Shown piece by piece: positions 405 to 63,484 of a stretch of DNA of 64,000 nucleotides. The stretch is from a phage. The DNA lies in assembly GCA_024790105.1 (NCBI GenBank), contig GCA_024790105.1_3053.1; one strand, 5' to 3'. Positions within the stretch are counted from its first letter, which is position 1. The number at the start of each line of letters is the position of its first letter. The position numbers and the translations under genes were made by a program. The notes beneath the pieces were generated by a model. It saw only the letters and a list, made by a program, of their open reading frames with translations, searched no databases and was not told the origin of the DNA.

Positions 405-554
405 TTACTGCATGACTGTGATAACTGTCATGATAACACGTTGAATTCCGAACGCAAGAAGACCTCCTGCTACGGCTGGAACGACACCTAAACCCGCCAG
501 TAAAATGCTACCGGATACTAATGCAGCGCTTGTAATACCTATGAATGGACTCAT
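405..554 (-). CDS. small hydrophobic protein (49 aa), below ORF-track cutoff
   Basis: ATG 554-552 overlaps gene 52 stop (ATGA); MSPFIGITSAALVSGSILLAGLGVVPAVAGGLLAFGIQRVIMTVITVMQ. Confidence 0.45.
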   Translation of the reverse strand: MSPFIGITSAALVSGSILLAGLGVVPAVAGGLLAFGIQRVIMTVITVMQ

Positions 555-1883: not shown

Positions 1884-2024
1884 TTACCATACTAGTGAAT
1901 GTAGTGCCATAATAACATCAGAAATGAAAAGCACGACTTGAATTAATCCGAACATTACTCCATAATATAGTGCTACTAATAAAGTAGCAAGGGCTAATGA
2001 ATAGCCCAAGATTTTCTTAATCAT
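1884..2024 (-). CDS. small membrane protein (46 aa)
   Basis: ATG 2024-2022 overlaps ac stop; hydrophobic MIKKILGYSLALATLLVALYYGVMFGLIQVVLFISDVIMALHSLVW. Confidence 0.4.
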   Translation of the reverse strand: MIKKILGYSLALATLLVALYYGVMFGLIQVVLFISDVIMALHSLVW

Positions 2025-2182: not shown

Positions 2183-2263
2183 TCATTGGCGTCCGAAGAC
2201 GCCTTTAGTTTTAAGATTGTTACGATAGAACTGCATCACATGTTCGTTATGGAAATTACTCAT
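2183..2263 (-). CDS. stp: Stp peptide (26 aa)
   Basis: translation [26 protein letters not shown] recognised as T4 Stp; ATG overlaps ndd stop (TAATG). Confidence 0.85.
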
Positions 2264-2721
2264 TAATATGCCTGCAAAACGAATTTAAAGTTATCAGCCA
2301 GCATACGGTTCATTTCTTCAAGTGTTTGATACTCAGAATGATGATTACGAGTAAACGCTAAAGCTAACTGTCCTTTTCCAAATCCCGTCGTCAGAGGTTT
2401 CATCTTAGAAGCAGGCAGATAAAACACTGTGTATGGAACATTGTTATTTGCAATAGTACGTGCAAGCTGAGACCGACGTTGACGAATATGACTTAGAACT
2501 GCACTGAATCCTTGCTTAGAACGCTGATTACCTACATAAAATCGTGCTGACACACATGGATTACTAAATGGACGACCATCTAATTTACTTACTAAAAAGT
2601 AAAATCCAGGTTTAGATAAAATATCTTTATGCGGAGTTCCCAAAAACCATTCACCATTCTTGATTGTACCAATAACAGTAGCGCCTGCATTATTCAGATC
2701 AGTAACAGTCATATATTTCAT
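2263..2721 (-). CDS. ndd: Ndd nucleoid disruption protein
   Basis: 152-aa product from ATG at 2721 ([13 protein letters not shown]...) preceded by GAGG SD; ORF-track start is an upstream non-ATG. Confidence 0.85.
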
Positions 2722-2779
2722 ATTAATTTCCTCTAAATTATTTTCTACTCCAAGGCCGCATGAATACGCGGCCATTAAA

Positions 2780-2995
2780 TTAATCGTCGCAGTCGACGCT
2801 CAATTCCCAAAACTCTTCTACGGTATAAGTTTCAGTATCATTTTCAATACAGAAACGTTCATTACTATTGTTTGCTAAAGTAGCGTTAACTGTCATTTTT
2901 TCGCTAGTGCTCTTAAGAGGTGAAATACGAATTAACTGATCGCCGTTATCTAAACAAAAAATTTCACCAACTTTTACATCTTTAAAGATTTTCAT
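2780..2995 (-). CDS. hypothetical protein (71 aa)
   Basis: ATG 2995 with GAGGTG SD. Confidence 0.6.
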
Positions 2996-3003
2996 AATTC
3001 ACC

Positions 3004-3114
3004 TCAAGGAGTATAAAATCCGAATGCAGTTGTTGACCATCCCATCCAATATGGAAAATTTGCACCAATGTAAAACATAAGAATATAAAACCAACCGCTC
3101 AACAAATTCATCAT
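3004..3114 (-). CDS. tiny hydrophobic ORF (36 aa)
   Basis: ATGATG at 3114; overlaps stop of upstream gene; Trp-rich membrane-like peptide. Confidence 0.3.
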   Translation of the reverse strand: MMNLLSGWFYILMFYIGANFPYWMGWSTTAFGFYTP

Positions 3115-3308
3115 TTTACACCATTCCAAATTGTTTCAACCACAGATTTTAAACCATTTTGATGAATATCAATTCCGACTACTGTCATCAAATAAATTCC
3201 AACTACAACTGAACCTAAGGCAAAAATCAGCATAAAAATGAATAAAGCCGGAAAAATATTATCGAAAAACCATTCAATAAATGTAAAAGCACTGCGTTTA
3301 CGCTTCAT
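3111..3308 (-). CDS. small membrane protein (65 aa)
   Basis: ATG 3308 with GAGGAAAAT SD; hydrophobic; ORF-track start lies upstream. Confidence 0.55.
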   Translation of the reverse strand: MKRKRSAFTFIEWFFDNIFPALFIFMLIFALGSVVVGIYLMTVVGIDIHQNGLKSVVETIWNGVK

Positions 3309-3315
3309 ATTTTCC

Positions 3316-3429
3316 TCACATAAATCCAAAGTAAACGTTTAATACATCAATCATTAAAACGATTGGGAATATACTCAAAACTATTAGTATTATAACTACA
3401 TTCCATATAGCTTTAACAATCTTTTTCAT
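3316..3429 (-). CDS. small membrane protein (37 aa)
   Basis: ATG 3429 directly after promoter-leader GGAGGAACAGAAA; MKKIVKAIWNVVIILIVLSIFPIVLMIDVLNVYFGFM. Confidence 0.45.
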   Translation of the reverse strand: MKKIVKAIWNVVIILIVLSIFPIVLMIDVLNVYFGFM

Positions 3430-3440
3430 TTTCTGTTCCT

Positions 3441-3487
3441 CCGTAGTTGATAGTTGTATAGTACCACAGAGGAACAGTCTTGTAAAC
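3441..3487 (-). promoter_or_regulatory. early promoter cassette
   Basis: GTTTAC (3487-3482), TGGTACTATACAACTATCAACTACGGAGG leader supplies the SD. Confidence 0.6.
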
Positions 3488-3493
3488 AACTTT

Positions 3494-3592
3494 TTAAAAA
3501 TATTCGTAATAAATGTGAATACCAATCACCACTGCTGAAACCTGTGCAACCCACCACGCACAAGCAATAAGTACAGAATTCAAAATTTTCAT
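3494..3592 (-). CDS. tiny hydrophobic ORF (32 aa)
   Basis: ATG 3592 overlapping upstream stop (ATGA); MKILNSVLIACAWWVAQVSAVVIGIHIYYEYF. Confidence 0.3.
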   Translation of the reverse strand: MKILNSVLIACAWWVAQVSAVVIGIHIYYEYF

Positions 3593-3675
3593 AATAACCT
3601 CATCACAAAAGTAAATGTTAAACAAATTAATGGAATACTAATTAACCAAACGAAACACCACCATAATGAACTCAT
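3589..3675 (-). CDS. tiny hydrophobic ORF (28 aa)
   Basis: ATG 3675 overlaps upstream stop (ATGA); MSSLWWCFVWLISIPLICLTFTFVMRLL. Confidence 0.3.
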   Translation of the reverse strand: MSSLWWCFVWLISIPLICLTFTFVMRLL

Positions 3676-3935
3676 AGCTCAATCTCAGCGATTTTCATTT
3701 CATTACTATTAATAGCCGCTTTAAGACTATCTGAAAGAATTACATTCCAATGGTCATTCATATGACCATTAACTAAGCGTGTAATTTCTTCGGGAGTTGA
3801 AAAATAAGGCGTATCAGACTCCCAATGCGATAATCCTAAGCGAGTATAAATCATACCTTCATCATCGCTAGAATATTCAACTGACATAAACTCATCAGTT
3901 ATTTTATGTTTAGCGTAATAAAATTTAAATTTCAT
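3672..3935 (-). CDS. hypothetical protein (87 aa)
   Basis: ATG 3935 after GGAGGAGCGGAAA leader. Confidence 0.65.
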   Translation of the reverse strand: MKFKFYYAKHKITDEFMSVEYSSDDEGMIYTRLGLSHWESDTPYFSTPEEITRLVNGHMNDHWNVILSDSLKAAINSNEMKIAEIEL

Positions 3936-3945
3936 TTTCCGCTCC

Positions 3946-3993
3946 TCCGTAGTTGATAGTTGTATAGTACCACAGTCCTTGTGGTATGTAAAC
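3946..3993 (-). promoter_or_regulatory. early promoter cassette
   Basis: GTTTAC 3993-3988, conserved -10/leader block. Confidence 0.6.
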
Positions 3994-4010
3994 CGTTTTG
4001 TGAAAATTTT

Positions 4011-4568
4011 TTAAATGGAAAGATACCATCCGTTGTAGTTGCTTTTTCTTACAACCTTACGAAGGTCTTCTCTATCACCGATGAACTTCGGAGTGTACTG
4101 GATGACACCTGGGTGAATTTCTTTAGTGTTGAATATAATTATACAGTCAGCGACCTGATGATTCAGAATGGGCCCTAGATTTATTCCAGAACCGTATGGA
4201 TACTCTCCGCTACATCCTGTTGTTACAGAAATCCAACGTGAGTCAGTTTGATGTGTCTTAACTTCTACACGAAGCCCGCAGTATCTTGGATGCGCCAATA
4301 CATCCCATGCGTATGTATACGGGTCATTAACGTCCTCTTGGCCTTTGTTAACATACCCGCTTAGCCAATCTGCTACAAAAAACTCTGCGTACACCGCGAT
4401 ACGGCATCTTTCGATAACTTCTGCCTTATCCTGATTTGGATTTTGTTTTAAAGAGTATCTTGCTGTATCAGCAATTTTGACCTTCATTTCACTAGTCAAG
4501 TCACTGTTAGATAGGGTAAATGATGGAATCTGAAATAGTCTCTGCAAACCCGGATTTGTTTTCTGCAT
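4011..4568 (-). CDS. denB: endonuclease IV (DenB)
   Basis: 185-aa ORF, ATG 4568 with AAGGAAAG SD; length and position match T4 denB. Confidence 0.8.
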   Translation of the reverse strand: MQKTNPGLQRLFQIPSFTLSNSDLTSEMKVKIADTARYSLKQNPNQDKAEVIERCRIAVYAEFFVADWLSGYVNKGQEDVNDPYTYAWDVLAHPRYCGLRVEVKTHQTDSRWISVTTGCSGEYPYGSGINLGPILNHQVADCIIIFNTKEIHPGVIQYTPKFIGDREDLRKVVRKSNYNGWYLSI

Positions 4569-4626
4569 TTAAACTTTCCTTTATGTCGGAATCACTGATA
4601 TTCATATAATAAATCATAATTTCTCT

Positions 4627-4650
4627 TAAAACAAAAGGGCCGAAGCCCTT
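4627..4650 (-). terminator. C(UUCG)G hairpin terminator
   Basis: AAGGGC-cgaa-GCCCTT hairpin 4635-4650 plus U-rich tract on minus strand. Confidence 0.5.
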
Positions 4651-4653
4651 ATT

Positions 4654-4848
4654 TTATTTGAATTGTGCGATTCTTTTTTCTAAACACTCTGCGTAAGATT
4701 TCATTGAGATGAACTGTGAAAGCAGCAGTTCTTGCTCAACTGCACTAACCGTTAGAAACTTTGCGCTTTCTAAAAATTTGCTCAGTGCATTAATTTTGAG
4801 CATTAATTGATCGTATTCTTCTTTTACTCGTGCTTGATAACCTAACAT
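4654..4848 (-). CDS. hypothetical protein (64 aa)
   Basis: ATG 4848 with AAGGA SD. Confidence 0.6.
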   Translation of the reverse strand: MLGYQARVKEEYDQLMLKINALSKFLESAKFLTVSAVEQELLLSQFISMKSYAECLEKRIAQFK

Positions 4849-4876
4849 AATTTTCCTTAGTTAAGGGCCGAAGCCC

Positions 4877-5815
4877 TTATTTAAATTGTTCAGTAACGTC
4901 TTCAATTACTTCGTATTGGCAGGTACGCATTTTAGCGTCGTTGTAATCAATCGGAATTGATACTACATCACGAGGATGAACTTTAACTTTTACAACTCGG
5001 CTGGTTGAACCACCGAAGTGACGAATATAAGATTTAGAACACACATGCAGACCACGAGAACAAGTTTGTGTATCATCGTCATTTACACGAGTACGTGGCA
5101 TTTTAACTACTTTACCAGGACTGTTATCAAAGGTATTTGAGTGACAGTCAAAGTAATTGCTACGAACTACTTTCCAAGCATAGAAGTAACCATCTTCTGT
5201 AATTTCAATATCGTTTGCTACCAAGAAATCAAAAAGTCGAGATACCGCTTTCTGGCTTGGGTTTTCCAGCAGATTTTCCAAGAACGGAAAATAAAATTCA
5301 AAGTTTTCACCTTTTTCCATCGAATCGAGAATACGATCAACTAAACCAGACCGCAATTCAATATTTTGATAGAATAAGCTTCCACCTTCAATTCGAACAT
5401 CGCCGGAAATATATTTTTCAACAGCGCGACGAACGTTAATTTTTTGTGCCGCTTCTTCCAACTTATCTGCTACAAGCAGATTAAGAATTTCCTGGAAGTT
5501 TGAATGAGTATTAGGAGTTGCGTTATAAGTTACACCGTCAACAGTAATTGAAATGAATTTTTTAGATGCATTCCAAATAATGTCAGATTTAGCAACTGGA
5601 GCAATAACTGCATCGCTATTAACTTTAACTGTAATATCACCGCTAATAGTAACTTTAGAGCGTTTAGCTTCTTCAGAATTTTTCAAAACACGACGGATTG
5701 TGTCAACCGATACACCTTGCCAATCAGCCAATTCCTGTTGGGTGTAATTACCACTTGAATACAGCTTAACAATTTCAGCTTGTTCGTTTTTGGTCAGGCA
5801 TTTAATATTGTACAT
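4877..5815 (-). CDS. rIIB: rIIB membrane-associated protein
   Basis: 312-aa ORF, ATG 5815 with AAGGAAAATT SD; immediately downstream of rIIA. Confidence 0.95.
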   Translation of the reverse strand: MYNIKCLTKNEQAEIVKLYSSGNYTQQELADWQGVSVDTIRRVLKNSEEAKRSKVTISGDITVKVNSDAVIAPVAKSDIIWNASKKFISITVDGVTYNATPNTHSNFQEILNLLVADKLEEAAQKINVRRAVEKYISGDVRIEGGSLFYQNIELRSGLVDRILDSMEKGENFEFYFPFLENLLENPSQKAVSRLFDFLVANDIEITEDGYFYAWKVVRSNYFDCHSNTFDNSPGKVVKMPRTRVNDDDTQTCSRGLHVCSKSYIRHFGGSTSRVVKVKVHPRDVVSIPIDYNDAKMRTCQYEVIEDVTEQFK

Positions 5816-24071: not shown

Positions 24072-24272
24072 ATGGTACAAAAATTAATGGCACTTGTTAA
24101 TGCCATCAAAGGTAATAAAAAGCGTATAGCTTTTACTATTTCTGCTATGATAGGAATTTTACTTTGGAATTTTGTTTTATCGCCAGTTGCTATTGCTCAT
24201 GGCGTTAGTATTCCAGTAGTTACTCTTGATACATTCGTAGATTTAGCATTTGCTTTAGTTGGGTTAATTTAA
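24072..24272 (+). CDS. small membrane protein (66 aa) on plus strand
   Basis: strong SD AAGGAGGA 6 nt before ATG 24072; hydrophobic; convergent with gene 61. Confidence 0.5.
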   Translation: MVQKLMALVNAIKGNKKRIAFTISAMIGILLWNFVLSPVAIAHGVSIPVVTLDTFVDLAFALVGLI

Positions 24273-31904: not shown

Positions 31905-32054
31905 TCAATTGATACATTCATATTTAACTTGTAACAGTAATAAACCCCAACCTAAAATAATAGTTGGAATCATAAGAGGAACCGTTACACTATAGTATAT
32001 ACTTATTATAACCATCAAGATTAAAAGCAATGCTGTTATAATTTTGCTTTTCAT
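31905..32054 (-). CDS. small membrane protein (49 aa)
   Basis: ATG 32054 overlaps imm stop (ATGA); re-translated codon by codon. Confidence 0.35.
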   Translation of the reverse strand: MKSKIITALLLILMVIISIYYSVTVPLMIPTIILGWGLLLLQVKYECIN

Positions 32055-32309: not shown

Positions 32310-32690
32310 TCACTTAGTTAAATTTTTTACGCATGAATTATAAGAATTCACTACATACTCCATCGGAGCATTTTTACCAGTACGCCATTGGTAATTATTA
32401 GCCCAATTAGCCCAAAGTTCTGCACAGTAATTTTCAATTTTTTCTTCGCGTGTAATTACATCCGAATTACGATATGCTTGAGCAGATTCATCTGGACGAA
32501 TAGCTTCGTCAAAATTCGCCTGCATTTGTTCTACTGTTTGCTTTGGAGCTTCTTTATAACACTTGACATTAGGATTATAAAATTTGCTTGAACAGTTTAC
32601 AATTTTTCCTACATCAGACTGATTTACTACCGGTCCTTGAGCTACACAACCAGTAAGACCTAATGCAATAACCAAAATAGCGATTTTCAT
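32310..32690 (-). CDS. putative lipoprotein (126 aa)
   Basis: ATG 32690 with GGAGAATGAA SD; lipobox LTGC. Confidence 0.65.
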   Translation of the reverse strand: MKIAILVIALGLTGCVAQGPVVNQSDVGKIVNCSSKFYNPNVKCYKEAPKQTVEQMQANFDEAIRPDESAQAYRNSDVITREEKIENYCAELWANWANNYQWRTGKNAPMEYVVNSYNSCVKNLTK

Positions 32691-32708
32691 TTCATTCTCC
32701 AAATCCGT

Positions 32709-32757
32709 ATCAGTAGTTGATAGTTGTATAGTACCATAGAAGAACAGGGATGTAAAC
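32709..32757 (-). promoter_or_regulatory. early promoter cassette
   Basis: GTTTAC 32757-32752 with conserved -10/leader block. Confidence 0.6.
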
Positions 32758-42652: not shown

Positions 42653-43668
42653 TGTGTTGCCTCTACATATAACTGATTTGCATATTGAATAAGTGCTTCA
42701 CGGTCAGAATCAGTGATGTCTGGAATTGCATTAATGTATTCTTCCATCAACGTCTGAAGAGATTGAACTTCAACTTCTTCACTATCATCTGACTCGACAG
42801 AGTTATCAATCTTTGACACAACTCGTAATGAATGCACAACTTTTTCTAGTTCAGATTCGAACTTCGTTAGATTTTTGTCTACCTCAGTTACTATAACACG
42901 TACTGATAGATTTGTAAAATCTTTATAGTCAATTTTTCCCTTAAATGGATATTGAATTCGACGATGCCAGGTGGTGTTGTTTGGAATAAATTCCATTCGT
43001 TCTGTTTCTGTATCAAACATCCAGAACCCACGAGGGTCATTCTCGTCACCTGCAGTTAGTGTCCATGGTGTCCCAATATATCTGACGTTAGCAGCCTCAG
43101 AGATAGTATGGAAGTGACCAGACCACACCTCTTTATAAGTCTTAAGGAAATCAGGTTCAAGACCGTGAGATTTCATTCCTTTATAAAAATAAAATCCATT
43201 CAATTCCCAGTGACCAACACAAAAAGAAGCAGATGAAGTTTTGATGTGTTCAAGAATTTCACCAGTGTTTTCTTCACACATCCAAGGAATCAAATCAATC
43301 AAACATCCGTCAAAATCTACTGTAGTAGGCTTATCATATACTTTAACATTAGGATATTTAGCCAAAAGCTCAGTAGAGGCATTTGGATGCATTACATTTT
43401 TGTAGTGAAGATCGTGATTTCCTACAATAGTATGTAATGTGATTCCAGCACCATCAAGCATTTGAACTATTTCACGGGCAAACTCCATAGTTTTATGCGT
43501 GATTGCTTTTCGCACATCAAAAATATCACCGTATTGAATCCAGGTAGTAATTCCATTTTTCTTAGAATATTCTATTGCTTGTTTAATTCCATCAATTTGA
43601 ATACCGCGAATCCACTCATCATCAGCTTTAACGCCTAAATGCCAATCACCTAAATTTAAAATTTTCAT
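42649..43668 (-). CDS. 47: recombination nuclease subunit gp47 (SbcD/Mre11-like)
   Basis: 339 aa; phosphoesterase motifs DWHLG, GDIFD, GNHD. Confidence 0.9.
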   Translation of the reverse strand: MKILNLGDWHLGVKADDEWIRGIQIDGIKQAIEYSKKNGITTWIQYGDIFDVRKAITHKTMEFAREIVQMLDGAGITLHTIVGNHDLHYKNVMHPNASTELLAKYPNVKVYDKPTTVDFDGCLIDLIPWMCEENTGEILEHIKTSSASFCVGHWELNGFYFYKGMKSHGLEPDFLKTYKEVWSGHFHTISEAANVRYIGTPWTLTAGDENDPRGFWMFDTETERMEFIPNNTTWHRRIQYPFKGKIDYKDFTNLSVRVIVTEVDKNLTKFESELEKVVHSLRVVSKIDNSVESDDSEEVEVQSLQTLMEEYINAIPDITDSDREALIQYANQLYVEATQ

Positions 43669-43805
43669 ATATCAAGAACCGTCATTGAAATGCAAAATAA
43701 AATTATTGAAATAAATCCATCTGGAGTGCTAAAGAACCCAATCCAACATGCTCTAGTGAATAGATAAAATGCAAGAAAAAGTATCACATATCCAAGAAAT
43801 ATCAT
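43665..43805 (-). CDS. tiny hydrophobic ORF (46 aa)
   Basis: ATG 43805, stop overlaps gene 47 start (ATGA). Confidence 0.3.
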   Translation of the reverse strand: MIFLGYVILFLAFYLFTRACWIGFFSTPDGFISIILFCISMTVLDI

Positions 43806-49059: not shown

Positions 49060-49275
49060 TTAAGCCTTTTTATCAAGAACAGCATTCAGCTTGTTAATAA
49101 TTTTATCCAGACGCTCATTAAACTCACTAGAAGATAAGCCCTTTTCTGGAGAAATTAAACTAATCACGAAAAATATAGCAATAAAAGGAATAAGGAAAAT
49201 AGCTCCAACTGCCATAAACAGAAAGAATGTTACAGTTGTAAGAAAATCAGCTAAACCTTTACGAAATTTATACAT
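49060..49275 (-). CDS. small membrane protein (71 aa)
   Basis: ATG 49275 with AAGGGTAAAAT SD. Confidence 0.6.
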   Translation of the reverse strand: MYKFRKGLADFLTTVTFFLFMAVGAIFLIPFIAIFFVISLISPEKGLSSSEFNERLDKIINKLNAVLDKKA

Positions 49276-63105: not shown

Positions 63106-63275
63106 ATATTAATTTCCAGGAGTTTTAAAATAATTCGCTTTTGCTTAAATATTTCCATAGTTAAATGACCAGTATCTTTTTGACCGATTCCAATGGCAAA
63201 ACCTTTATTAACAGCGAGTTCAATTAAATTATCAAGCTCACGTAACACTTCGTATTGTAACTCAAAACTATTCAT
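63102..63275 (-). CDS. small ORF (57 aa)
   Basis: ATG 63275 with AAGAAGGTAAA SD; ATGA overlap with downstream gene. Confidence 0.45.
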   Translation of the reverse strand: MNSFELQYEVLRELDNLIELAVNKGFAIGIGQKDTGHLTMEIFKQKRIILKLLEINI

Positions 63276-63484
63276 TTTGGTTTACCTTCTTTAACGAAAT
63301 CAGGATAAGGATAAAATCCTGAATAAAATCCTTCACCTTTATGATTGATGCATCCTTTATTAGAACAATAGCACCAATAATCGAAATCACAAGCCATTTC
63401 ATCGTTGCATAAAGCAAAAACAACAGGCCACTTACACTTTTCACAGTGGGCATTTTTAAGAATACTAGTTTGGCTCATAACCAT
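63272..63484 (-). CDS. Cys-rich small protein (70 aa)
   Basis: ATG 63484 with AAAGG SD; multiple CxxC-like pairs. Confidence 0.5.
   Translation of the reverse strand: MVMSQTSILKNAHCEKCKWPVVFALCNDEMACDFDYWCYCSNKGCINHKGEGFYSGFYPYPDFVKEGKPK

Follow-up and report, generated by a model that had tools for sequence, protein, structure and literature searches.

The closest described counterparts of the genes considered here are the T4 genes ndd.1 to ndd.6, motA.1, 52.1 and 47.1. Those between ndd and denB, and 52.1, belong to the classical non-essential 'host-takeover' block, which is missing from the deletion saDelta9 (52.1, ac, stp, ndd, ndd.1 to ndd.6 and denB), and the phage yield of this deletion is 50% of that of the wild type (PMC6071114). 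The T4 orthologues of the ORFs discussed below are classed as early RNA (PMC9697503 Table S2), and the knock-down of each of them by CRISPRi-ART gave no fitness effect, all being scored 'Not Fit' (PMC11879866). A second system for comparison is the promoter-early stem-loop (PeSL) element, a mobile regulatory cassette described in T4-type phages (Arbiol 2010, PMC2839356; Comeau 2014, PMC4122927), with which our locus shares the consensus promoter, the near-identical copies and the variable neighbour genes; in fact, Fig. 6A of the latter paper illustrates the element with this very locus (ndd.4/.5). Moreover T4 Imm (83 aa) and Ac (~51 aa) are, like the tiny hydrophobic ORFs of the window (the whole stretch of 64,000 nucleotides of phage DNA analysed herein), early, small, hydrophobic and non-essential, and operons are shared as well, since ac adjoins 52.1 and imm adjoins 42.1. 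However, Imm and Ac have known phenotypes, and they show no detectable sequence relationship to the window ORFs.

By its sequence the window is assigned to Tequatrovirus, that is, to a T4-like coliphage, and the region under study matches many Tequatrovirus genomes with 96-98% identity. The first-pass annotation had proposed a chain of tiny overlapping ORFs between ndd and denB, and such a chain was borne out: the minus strand of 2780-3935 holds seven tightly packed genes with two early-promoter cassettes upstream, in the order of orf87, ndd.6, ndd.5, cassette, ndd.4, a 65-aa ORF, ndd.2 and ndd.1, and the five sets of coordinates proposed at first, here and at four other sites, are exact ATG-to-stop ORFs, all on the minus strand. 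The junctions orf87/ndd.6 and ndd.6/ndd.5 are ATGA overlaps; the 65-aa ORF and ndd.2 are joined by an ATGATG overlap, which becomes TAATG in relatives having ATA for the first ATG; ndd.4 and the 65-aa ORF are separated by a 7-nt gap with a GAGGA ribosome-binding site, and ndd.2 and ndd.1 by an 8-nt gap. Two of the seven ORFs in the chain (71 and 87 aa) are soluble and lie above the 60-aa cutoff of the ORF track, and the 65-aa ORF likewise exceeds it.

The ORFs can be identified as orthologues of the named, uncharacterised T4 early genes ndd.1, ndd.2, ndd.2a/ndd.3, ndd.4, ndd.5, ndd.6, motA.1, 52.1, 42.1 and 47.1. The T4 feature table places ndd.1 to ndd.6 (NC_000866 T4p269-T4p275), motA.1, 52.1 and 47.1 at matching positions, with the same strand, order and overlaps, and the proteins are near-identical to the T4 products (0-2 substitutions); the syntenic slots and strand (ndd-denB, gp52/motA, ac/gp52 and a-gt/gp47) are the same as in T4, as judged from the T4 table and the alignment of 18 relatives. 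The tiny ORFs are missing from the ORF track because of its 60-aa threshold, and the novelty that had been read into this absence does not hold, most of them being already annotated in public records. The T4 gene list has included them for decades, they have PHROG or Pfam families, and their locus has served as a textbook case of PeSL shuffling. The tiny hydrophobic frames are best described as real, conserved and already known genes. Differences from T4 are few: a single 65-aa gene of the window stands in place of the two (ndd.3 and ndd.2a) of the T4 reference, an additional 87-aa gene, which T4 lacks, precedes ndd.6, and ndd.4 is called with 37 aa here against 42 aa in T4. In RB14 and PST a further gene of 68 aa (RB32ORF266c) is inserted between orf87 and denB, and the window is without it.

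The operon begins with orf87 (3672..3935, like all genes below on the minus strand), which encodes an 87-aa soluble acidic protein of phrog_2390 (E 2e-45) and has RB14 ORF269 and RB69 ORF270c as its orthologues, the former being recorded as RB14ncORF269c and annotated 'similar to RB69ORF270c'. Its length is constant at 264 nt despite about 40% amino-acid divergence, its pN/pS is 0.47, and its homologues in JS98 and phiC120 are in every case followed by ndd.6. A comparison of orf87 with Pfam gave no match, and PDB sequence searches with orf87 and Ndd.1 gave no meaningful one. The start of ndd.6 (3589..3675) overlaps the orf87 stop, and its product is a 28-aa single-helix hydrophobic peptide (hydropathy, here the maximum 19-residue Kyte-Doolittle value, 2.31; phrog_8851; pN/pS 0.08), and at 11 of 29 positions the residue is the same in Tequatrovirus, Dhakavirus, Mosigvirus and a further two T4-like contigs. 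The following ndd.5 (3494..3592), preceded by GAGG and with its start on the ndd.6 stop, encodes a 32-aa hydrophobic peptide (hydropathy 2.18; phrog_5011; pN/pS 0.09), with variable columns distributed as 1/1/10 over the three codon positions. We considered Ndd.5 as a lipoprotein for its L-I-A-C at residues 8-11 and rejected this, as the would-be signal peptide has 10 residues only and the 'mature' part would be the hydrophobic helix.

Directly behind the second cassette lies ndd.4 (3316..3429), whose 37-aa product combines a basic N-terminus (MKKIVK) with a single hydrophobic helix (hydropathy 3.06; phrog_3098). Its pN/pS of 0.73 is uninformative, since only a few changes enter into it (I/V, V/A and one P/T), therefore we relied on cross-genus conservation for this gene, and in the comparison with JS98 and a 177-kb T4-like contig 18 of its 38 positions do not vary. 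The 65-aa ORF (3111..3308) corresponds to T4 'ndd.3' plus 'ndd.2a', and its product shows a KRKR N-terminus, a hydrophobic segment of some length and, at the C-terminus, a GLKSVVETIWNG tail that is conserved; it matches Pfam DUF7248 (E 6.5e-19, with 68.1 bits where the cutoff is 27, covering model positions 4-57 of 58) and phrog_2401, with a pN/pS of 0.08. Its stop is overlapped by the start of ndd.2 (3004..3114), whose 35- or 36-aa product is rich in aromatic residues and has zero charged ones (hydropathy 1.17; phrog_4135; pN/pS 0.13), and its N(F/T)PYW(M/L)G motif is found in a distant contig too. The last gene ahead of ndd is ndd.1 (2780..2995), encoding a 71-aa soluble acidic protein (phrog_2183, E 3e-38; pN/pS 0.09).

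The other four sites hold ORFs of the same kind, with pN/pS from 0.09 to 0.40. At 405..554 is motA.1, whose start overlaps the gp52 stop and whose product is a 49-aa glycine-rich hydrophobic peptide (phrog_3487; pN/pS 0.14), while at 1884..2024 is 52.1, a 46-aa hydrophobic peptide gene that overlaps the end of ac by 8 nt, matches Pfam DUF7396 (gp52.1) over positions 1-46 of 46 (E 3.5e-23, 81.9 bits, cutoff 27), has a pN/pS of 0.19 and is near-identical in JS98. At 43665..43805 is 47.1, encoding a 46-aa peptide with two hydrophobic stretches, its stop overlapping the start of gene 47; a conserved RACW(I/V)GFFSTPDGFIS loop is seen in it, pN/pS is 0.09, and 25 of 47 positions are invariant in contigs where gp47 is only ~71% identical. 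No clear Shine-Dalgarno site was seen upstream of 52.1 and 47.1. The remaining ORF at 31905..32054 (49 aa, two hydrophobic stretches; phrog_3610; pN/pS 0.40) is not T4 imm.1 but 42.1, named gp42.1 in RB14.

The position of 42.1 brings in the question of superinfection exclusion or immunity, according to which the peptides would change the envelope so that the DNA of later T-even phages stays out, as with Imm, or would assist Imm or Sp. In fact, 42.1 is coupled to imm by an ATGA overlap within the operon cassette > imm.1 > imm > 42.1 > 42, the expression of the genes is early, and Imm too is a small (83 aa) and hydrophobic protein; moreover the null result of the single-infection knock-down says nothing on this point, because exclusion was not assayed there. 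However, PHROG, Pfam and NCBIfam searches showed no similarity to Imm or Sp for any of ten peptides, 42.1 is absent from other genera that retain imm, and no link of the ndd-denB block to exclusion was found in the literature examined, thus we consider such a role unlikely.

Considering that random ORFs tend to be hydrophobic because AT-rich DNA gives T-rich codons, it has to be asked whether the chain consists of chance ORFs in an AT-rich spacer, or of regulatory upstream ORFs with an irrelevant peptide. ATG-ORFs of at least 25 aa on the minus strand were compared with those in 1000 dinucleotide shuffles. They tile 93.2% of the strand, against 28% +/- 14% in the shuffles (maximum 73%; none of the 1000 comes up to the real strand), and four strongly hydrophobic ORFs are observed against 0.61 expected, so that about 0.6 such ORFs per region is what chance does supply. 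Frames and lengths are kept in the 18 relatives, as the first-pass annotation had suggested to check: the ndd-denB ORFs taken together have a pN/pS of 0.12 when read in frame and of 1.3 and 1.6 when the frame is shifted, and the in-frame value is 0.08-0.19 in 8 of 11 ORFs, the exceptions being 42.1 (0.40), orf87 (0.47) and ndd.4 (0.73). Homologues of Ndd.6, Ndd.4, Ndd.2, the DUF7248 protein, 47.1 and 52.1 are found in other T4-like genera, where the flanking Ndd and DenB are 43-72% identical and gp47 ~71%. In a PHROG scan of ten peptides (47.1 being left out), all ten match families over their full length with E from 1e-17 to 1e-45, the ids are the same as those listed for the T4 genes in PMC11879866, and nine of the ten tested peptides correspond to named T4 genes; NCBIfam has no family for any peptide. 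The hydrophobic peptides are also unseen by mass spectrometry, a point that could be taken in favour of chance: T4 Ndd.1 has been detected as an early protein, while ndd.2, 2a, 3, 4, 5, 6, motA.1, 52.1 and 47.1 gave no detection (PMC9697503). This is weak evidence, because short hydrophobic peptides make poor targets for the method, and no data set on ribosome profiling of T4 came up in the literature searches. Against chance stand the low in-frame pN/pS, the amino-acid motifs kept across genera on a strand tiled to 93%, and the almost complete lack of frame-breaking indels in 18 relatives; the chance or upstream-ORF explanation is thus close to refuted, and the ORFs are very probably genuine translated genes.

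As for the membrane character, the hydropathy lies between 2.0 and 3.1 in 8 of the 9 small hydrophobic peptides (ndd.4, ndd.5, ndd.6, DUF7248, motA.1, 52.1, 42.1 and 47.1), the four within the ndd-denB chain ranging from 2.2 to 3.1 and ndd.2 being the exception with 1.17, and basic N-termini are seen in Ndd.4, Ndd.5, the DUF7248 protein, 42.1 and 52.1. From this we infer that the hydrophobic products probably reside in the inner membrane. Some of these peptides are labelled 'outer membrane' or 'periplasmic' in T4 annotations, unlike the location proposed here. Bacterial small inner-membrane regulators such as AcrZ, MgrB, MgtS and SgrT, and type I toxins such as TisB and Hok, have a similar size class and the same one-helix architecture. 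Pfam and NCBIfam gave no homology between them and the window peptides; they serve as a working analogy for the way in which such peptides may act. Nevertheless the size of 28-37 aa and the single hydrophobic helix do recall type I toxins, and one may imagine a toxin-like host shut-off in which the peptides depolarise or permeabilise the inner membrane as TisB, Hok or Ibs do. T4 development, as is generally known, requires an energised membrane, and no toxin-family similarity was found in Pfam and NCBIfam, which argue against this. Though many small immediate-early T4 genes are host-lethal once cloned (Kutter et al.), toxicity as the function of these peptides seems decidedly improbable.

The two cassettes of the region belong to a 67-nt repeat family (D1), the 25-nt core of which has 6 copies in the window against 0 expected. 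Cassette 1 with its 5'UTR (3946..4012, minus strand) is of PeSL type and lies ahead of orf87; it has the -35 hexamer TTTACA at 3992..3987, a 17-nt spacer with TG, the -10 hexamer TACTAT ending at 3964, and a GGAGGAG ribosome-binding site. Cassette 2 (3440..3506, minus strand), ahead of ndd.4, has TTTACA at 3486..3481, N17 with TG and a TACTAT whose end is at 3458, GGAGGA serves as the ribosome-binding site, and the upstream AT-rich part of the cassette overlaps the last ndd.5 codons. The hexamers fit the PST/T4 PeSL consensus TTTACW-N17-TAYWAT (PMC4122927). A generic sigma-70 scan showed no enrichment in the region (9 sites against 11.5 expected), and only the two repeated cassettes appear credible as promoters there. 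It had been claimed at first that the tiny ORFs often lie directly behind a promoter cassette, which turned out to be too general, for a tiny hydrophobic ORF directly follows only one of the six cassette copies. In the terminator scan, G+C hairpins with a T-run came out only further upstream, at 4635-4650 and 4863-4888, and none was seen immediately ahead of 3440-3506 or 3946-4012; the published T4/PST PeSL stem-loops are weak and variable (PMC4122927).

Gene content at the cassettes differs between relatives: orf87 is absent in T4, where the junction falls in cassette-derived sequence, it is replaced in UFV13, and an extra gene is present in RB14. Such a fast turnover of presence and absence is typical of arms-race cargo, and the peptides might accordingly neutralise membrane-associated abortive-infection or exclusion systems of certain hosts or prophages, like rIIA/rIIB against RexAB. 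The neighbours include classic host-specific counter-defence or trigger genes, namely stp (PrrC) and rIIA/B (Rex), and the genes are dispensable in laboratory strains. However, this case is circumstantial, the amino-acid sequences are highly conserved (pN/pS ~0.1) rather than diversifying, and the libraries searched (PHROG, Pfam, NCBIfam) gave no match to a known anti-defence protein. Counter-defence is thus unlikely as the function of the chain.

Altogether we favour, with a probability of roughly 0.8, the identity with the T4 genes together with a general mechanism, in which the ORFs encode real small membrane proteins that are made early, are translationally coupled and play an accessory role on an unspecified target. 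In the first minutes of infection the sigma-70 host RNA polymerase would fire both PeSL cassettes and give two short polycistronic mRNAs, one with orf87 > ndd.6 > ndd.5 and the other with ndd.4 > 65-aa ORF > ndd.2 > ndd.1, reading into ndd. Ribosomes would then cross from gene to gene via the ATGA or ATGATG overlaps, or over the 7-8-nt gaps with a Shine-Dalgarno site. The hydrophobic products, with one or two helices and mostly a basic N-terminus, would be inserted into the host inner membrane in a topology that we likewise only predict, and there they might modulate proteins or lipids of the host envelope in an accessory way, useful in some hosts or conditions only. Whether the accessory role is directed at the envelope is in our estimation an even bet. 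Literature searches by name from ndd.2a to ndd.6 returned neurodevelopmental-disorder papers only, or nothing.

A more specific idea is that the block is a lipid-synthesis module, at least one membrane peptide causing the post-infection stimulation of phosphatidylglycerol and phospholipid synthesis that is lost in T4 saDelta9. It is true that this deletion abolishes the lipid stimulation, and the authors pointed out that several products of the block are predicted membrane proteins, none with a known lipid role (PMC6071114). On the other side, the stimulation of PG is equally lost in mutants where only dCTPase, EndoIV and Alc are missing (PMC6071114), therefore effects of denB or of cytosine-containing DNA are favoured over the small genes, and this explanation is quite unlikely. 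We may still mention, as a long shot, that orf87 and Ndd.6, and Ndd.4, the DUF7248 protein and Ndd.2, could form one envelope-remodelling module rather than miscellaneous cargo, either as the long-sought T4 determinant that switches host phospholipid synthesis to phosphatidylglycerol after infection or as a means of defeating membrane-based defence. If true, a function would be known for an ndd.x gene for the first time, and this would make a case of phage micro-proteins reprogramming host lipid metabolism.

Apart from function, the accessory small membrane proteins favoured here are of use as a clean positive control, since sub-60-codon frames in a T-even early region are seen to be true genes under strong purifying selection; they are also a reminder that roughly a dozen conserved, uncharacterised membrane micro-proteins exist in the best-studied phage. 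Two points of curation follow for the T4 reference. Frame-breaking indels, which the first-pass annotation had named as the observation that would speak against its genes, were sought in the relatives, and its proposal came through for the most part, as only two frameshifts were found: a 2-nt insertion in a G-run at the end of ndd.6 in one assembly, and the loss of one base, a G missing from AF158101 within 166,620-166,630, which is seen in the T4 reference alone and in none of the resequenced T4 stocks. The 65-aa ORF is 198 nt long in all aligned relatives except the T4 reference, which has the 1-nt deletion, and Sf25, which has a fusion. Thus T4 ndd.3 and ndd.2a most likely represent a single gene of 65 aa, which a deletion present in the reference only has divided. 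The second point is the omission of gene 42.1, which is intact in T4 DNA yet missing from the feature table of NC_000866 (T4 RefSeq). Finally, when the whole window was scanned for other tiny hydrophobic ORFs on the minus strand, only ac and two further ORFs, at 49060-49275 (71 aa) and at 63268-63453 (61 aa), came up.

The region between ndd and denB (2780-3935) carries a chain of seven genes on the minus strand, which is also the strand of all flanking ORFs (gp52, Stp, Ndd, DenB, rIIB and rIIA), and hundreds of Tequatrovirus genomes, from T4-like phages infecting E. coli, Shigella, Yersinia and Salmonella, match window 2200-4600 at 96-98% identity. Behind a minus-strand early-promoter cassette, composed of an AT-rich upstream part, TTTACA, 17 nt with TG, TACTAT, the conserved 5'UTR CAACTATCAACTAC and GGAGGAG, lies orf87 (3935..3672), a soluble 87-aa ORF, followed by ndd.6 (3675..3589, 28 aa) and ndd.5 (3592..3494, 32 aa), each entered through an ATGA overlap with the gene before it. 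A second cassette copy on the same strand separates ndd.5 from ndd.4 (3429..3316, 37 aa); 7 nt 3' of the latter begins a 65-aa ORF (3308..3111), whose GAGGA ribosome-binding site contains the ndd.4 stop, then ndd.2 (3114..3004), with an ATGATG overlap, and 8 nt further the soluble ndd.1 (2995..2780, 71 aa), after which comes ndd. The chain of tiny overlapping hydrophobic ORFs proposed by the first-pass annotation is thereby borne out, with ATGA/ATGATG overlaps and five of the seven products hydrophobic; the maximum 19-residue hydropathy is 2.2-3.1 in four of these five and 1.17 in ndd.2, whose peptide is aromatic and uncharged. Since the T4 RefSeq feature table names ndd.1, ndd.2, ndd.2a, ndd.3, ndd.4, ndd.5 and ndd.6 between ndd and denB, and elsewhere motA.1 (behind gene 52), 52.1 (behind ac) and 47.1 (ahead of gene 47), the finding falls on named genes; all of its items are already annotated, and the cassettes are already published for this exact locus.

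As for the coding capacity, tiling by ATG-ORFs with 25 codons or more reaches 93.2% on the minus strand and 9% on the plus strand, while 1000 dinucleotide-preserving shuffles gave a mean of 28% and a maximum of 73%, so that the ORF chain exceeds chance expectation and the tiny-ORF observation is correct and statistically solid. We further aligned the interval with 18 Tequatrovirus relatives (88-98% identity) and computed pN/pS by pairwise Nei-Gojobori. The conservation of frame that the first-pass annotation had named as a check was found for each small ORF, with start, stop and length kept in nearly all 18 relatives, and the variable columns accumulate at codon position 3. The pN/pS values are 0.08 for ndd.6, 0.09 for ndd.5, 0.08 for the 65-aa ORF, 0.13 for ndd.2 and 0.09 for ndd.1; ndd.4 alone, with few changes (I/V, V/A and one P/T), gives an uninformative 0.73. 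For the five hydrophobic ORFs pooled, the ratio is 0.12 in frame versus 1.3 in one shifted frame and 1.6 in the other, and an origin of these reading frames as chance ORFs or uORFs is essentially excluded. At the four further sites on the minus strand, it is 0.14 for motA.1 (405-554), 0.19 for 52.1 (1884-2024), 0.40 for 42.1 (31905-32054) and 0.09 for 47.1 (43665-43805), and no frame-breaking indel was seen at any of them in the aligned relatives.

Moreover, the small-ORF homologues persist in T4-like genomes of other genera, where Ndd and DenB are only 43-72% identical and gp47 about 71%. Ndd.6 has 11 invariant positions of 29 (MSS..W...W...IP.IC..F); it directly follows and overlaps an orf87 homologue in JS98 (Dhakavirus) and phiC120 (Mosigvirus), while in two T4-like contigs (L008 and L009) an unrelated 69-83-aa ORF takes the place of the latter. 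Tequatrovirus, Dhakavirus and Mosigvirus thus have in common that the soluble ORF (3672-3935) and Ndd.6 (3589-3675) stay side by side and overlap; the two could form a functional pair. JS98 and a 177-kb contig also encode Ndd.4, in which 18 of 38 positions do not vary (KAIWN...VL.IFPIV..ID), and the 177-kb contig has Ndd.2 and DUF7248 homologues too, with the common motifs NxPYWxG and GLKSV.(D/E)TIWNG. Likewise, 47.1 keeps 25 of 47 positions, including the loop RACW(I/V)GFFSTPDGFIS, and 52.1 is nearly identical in JS98. Conservation at this distance settles that selection acts on the peptides themselves, beyond the mere act of translation.

The T4 reference deserves separate attention, as its copy of the 65-aa gene (window 3111-3308, minus; NC_000866 166432-166628; T4 locus L002 4433-4629) has 197 nt against 198 nt in all relatives. 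One G is missing in codon 2 (ATGAA-CGT versus ATGAAGCGT), which yields 'ndd.3', an out-of-frame product of 26 aa listed as a PHROG singleton (PMC11879866), and 'ndd.2a', which starts at an internal Met and has 40 aa. Among the matches listed, a 76-nt probe over the site is 100% identical only to X75802.1, AF158101.6 and NC_000866.4; the other records listed have a 77-nt span, and the G is thus present in five independently sequenced T4 stocks (KJ477684, KJ477685, HM137666, OZ209023 and OZ209057) and about 465 other records. Direct translation of KJ477684 and OZ209023 gives an intact 65-aa ORF, and the match of the 65-aa protein to Pfam DUF7248 is full-length. The deletion most likely reflects an error in the reference sequence or a mutation private to a stock, and 'ndd.3' and 'ndd.2a' are probably one conserved DUF7248 gene split by the missing G, a merge that is one curation point for the T4 reference. 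Frame-disrupting indels in close relatives had been named in advance as the observation that would speak against coding; being confined to three T4 reference-type records, the deletion is no such evidence. The other break is in the IMG/VR assembly L006 (IMGVR_UViG_2974742932), where a G-run is longer by two G (AGG to AGGGG, window equivalent about 3598), which changes the last two ndd.6 codons and extends the frame; it is the sole ndd.6 frame break among the 18 relatives and may be a homopolymer assembly error.

Other relatives differ by whole segments. In Sf25 (L017 3332-3520; window equivalent 3207-3336), a 130-nt deletion links codons 1-31 of ndd.4, without a shift of frame, to the final 31 codons of the 65-aa gene, giving a 62-aa chimeric two-segment protein, which the Sf25 record labels 'Ndd.2a with a 22-residue N-terminal extension'. 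A 72-nt in-frame deletion removes most of ndd.2 in TB004, another gene replaces orf87 in UFV13, and RB14 has one additional 68-aa gene. T4, which lacks orf87, has an imm.1-type cassette 5'UTR and ATGAAAATCGCT fused to the last eight orf87 codons (L002 about 4990-5100; compare window 3690-3960), so that a mini-ORF, MKIAEIEL*, overlaps the ndd.6 start. An 18-nt stretch, AATGAAATGAAAATCGCT, occurs both at the imm.1 start (window about 32690-32710) and at the 3' end of orf87, and is likely the recombination site behind the loss of orf87 in T4; this candidate junction is a further by-product of the analysis. Such gene turnover at cassettes matches the modular shuffling mediated by PeSL (promoter-early stem-loop) elements of Arbiol et al. 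and Comeau et al., for which Comeau 2014 (Fig. 6A) gives the example 'ndd.4/.5 in T4 versus ORF268/269 in PST', and both cassettes of the region fit the PeSL consensus TTTACW-N17-TAYWAT of that paper. The 25-nt cassette core has six copies in the window against 0 expected. The gene that comes first behind a copy is motA, ndd.4, orf87, that of the imm.1-like lipoprotein and, in two cases, one of 125 aa or more; the earlier statement that the tiny ORFs often lie directly behind a cassette therefore holds for one of them only.

At 31905-32054 (minus), between imm and gene 42, lies a 49-aa ORF with an ATGA overlap with the imm stop, which is named 42.1 in RB14 and belongs to family phrog_3610. It is confined to Tequatrovirus among the loci compared and is intact in T4 DNA (NC_000866 26220-26372; T4 locus L024 1221-1373); its omission in the feature table of NC_000866 is a second curation point for the T4 RefSeq, and some other records, that of Ge15 among them, also lack it. 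An assignment of this ORF to T4 imm.1 was rejected, as imm.1 has 125 aa, lies upstream of imm and has its counterpart at window 32310-32702 (minus). This orthologue has 130 aa from the listed TTG start or 126 aa from ATG, begins with a lipoprotein-type signal with lipobox (MKIAILVIALGLTGC), and stands first behind a promoter cassette, with imm and 42.1 downstream. The RefSeq label of T4 imm.1, 'iduronate sulfatase', looks like a propagated mis-annotation.

With regard to expression, the T4 counterparts all belong to the early RNA class, and Ndd.1 and Imm.1 are detected early proteins while the hydrophobic peptides are undetected (Wolfram-Schauerte et al. 2022, PMC9697503, Table S2). The products of ndd.1 to ndd.6 are described as unknown, several being predicted membrane proteins (Kutter et al. 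2018, PMC6071114), and ndd.1 to ndd.6, 52.1, ac, stp, denB and 47.1 scored 'Not Fit' in knock-down (Adler et al. 2025, PMC11879866). It is reasonable to read the ORFs as coding for genuine small peptides of membrane type that belong to the early programme. In the most likely mechanism, whose steps up to and including transcription are shown or published, the two cassettes direct early sigma-70 transcription of two short polycistronic mRNAs; from there we infer that the overlaps would couple translation of successive small ORFs, that the hydrophobic products would enter the inner membrane, where the basic N-termini of Ndd.4, Ndd.5, DUF7248, 42.1 and 52.1 suggest an N-in topology, and that they may adjust host envelope proteins or lipids, mattering only in some hosts or conditions. 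A specific role in stimulating lipid synthesis is improbable: T4 saDelta9, which lacks 52.1, ac, stp, ndd, ndd.1-6 and denB and yields 50% of wild-type phage, does lose the stimulation of phospholipid and PG synthesis that follows infection, but a dCTPase/EndoIV/Alc mutant shows a similar loss (PMC6071114), and the lipid link of the small genes is therefore weakened. PHROG, Pfam, NCBIfam and PDB sequence searches gave no functional hint from family, structure or named homologue; superinfection exclusion, counter-defence and toxin-like shut-off are each, as specific roles, unlikely to the same degree.

Three further small hydrophobic ORFs absent from the first-pass annotation were seen in the window, namely a 71-aa ORF at 49060-49275 (minus; hydropathy 2.89), a 61-aa ORF at 63268-63453 (minus; 2.15), which a Cys-rich ORF of 70 aa overlaps in a different frame, and, preceded by a Shine-Dalgarno site, a 66-aa ORF at 24072-24272 (plus; 2.01), likened to a Ge15 hypothetical gene by length (66 aa) and strand only. 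Finally, a 26-nt hairpin repeat, AAGGGCCGAAGCCCTT with a T/A-rich tail, is terminator-like on both strands and is located at 4635-4660 and 4863-4888, one copy upstream of denB and one upstream of denB.1; these hairpins may represent the stem-loop component of PeSL-type elements.
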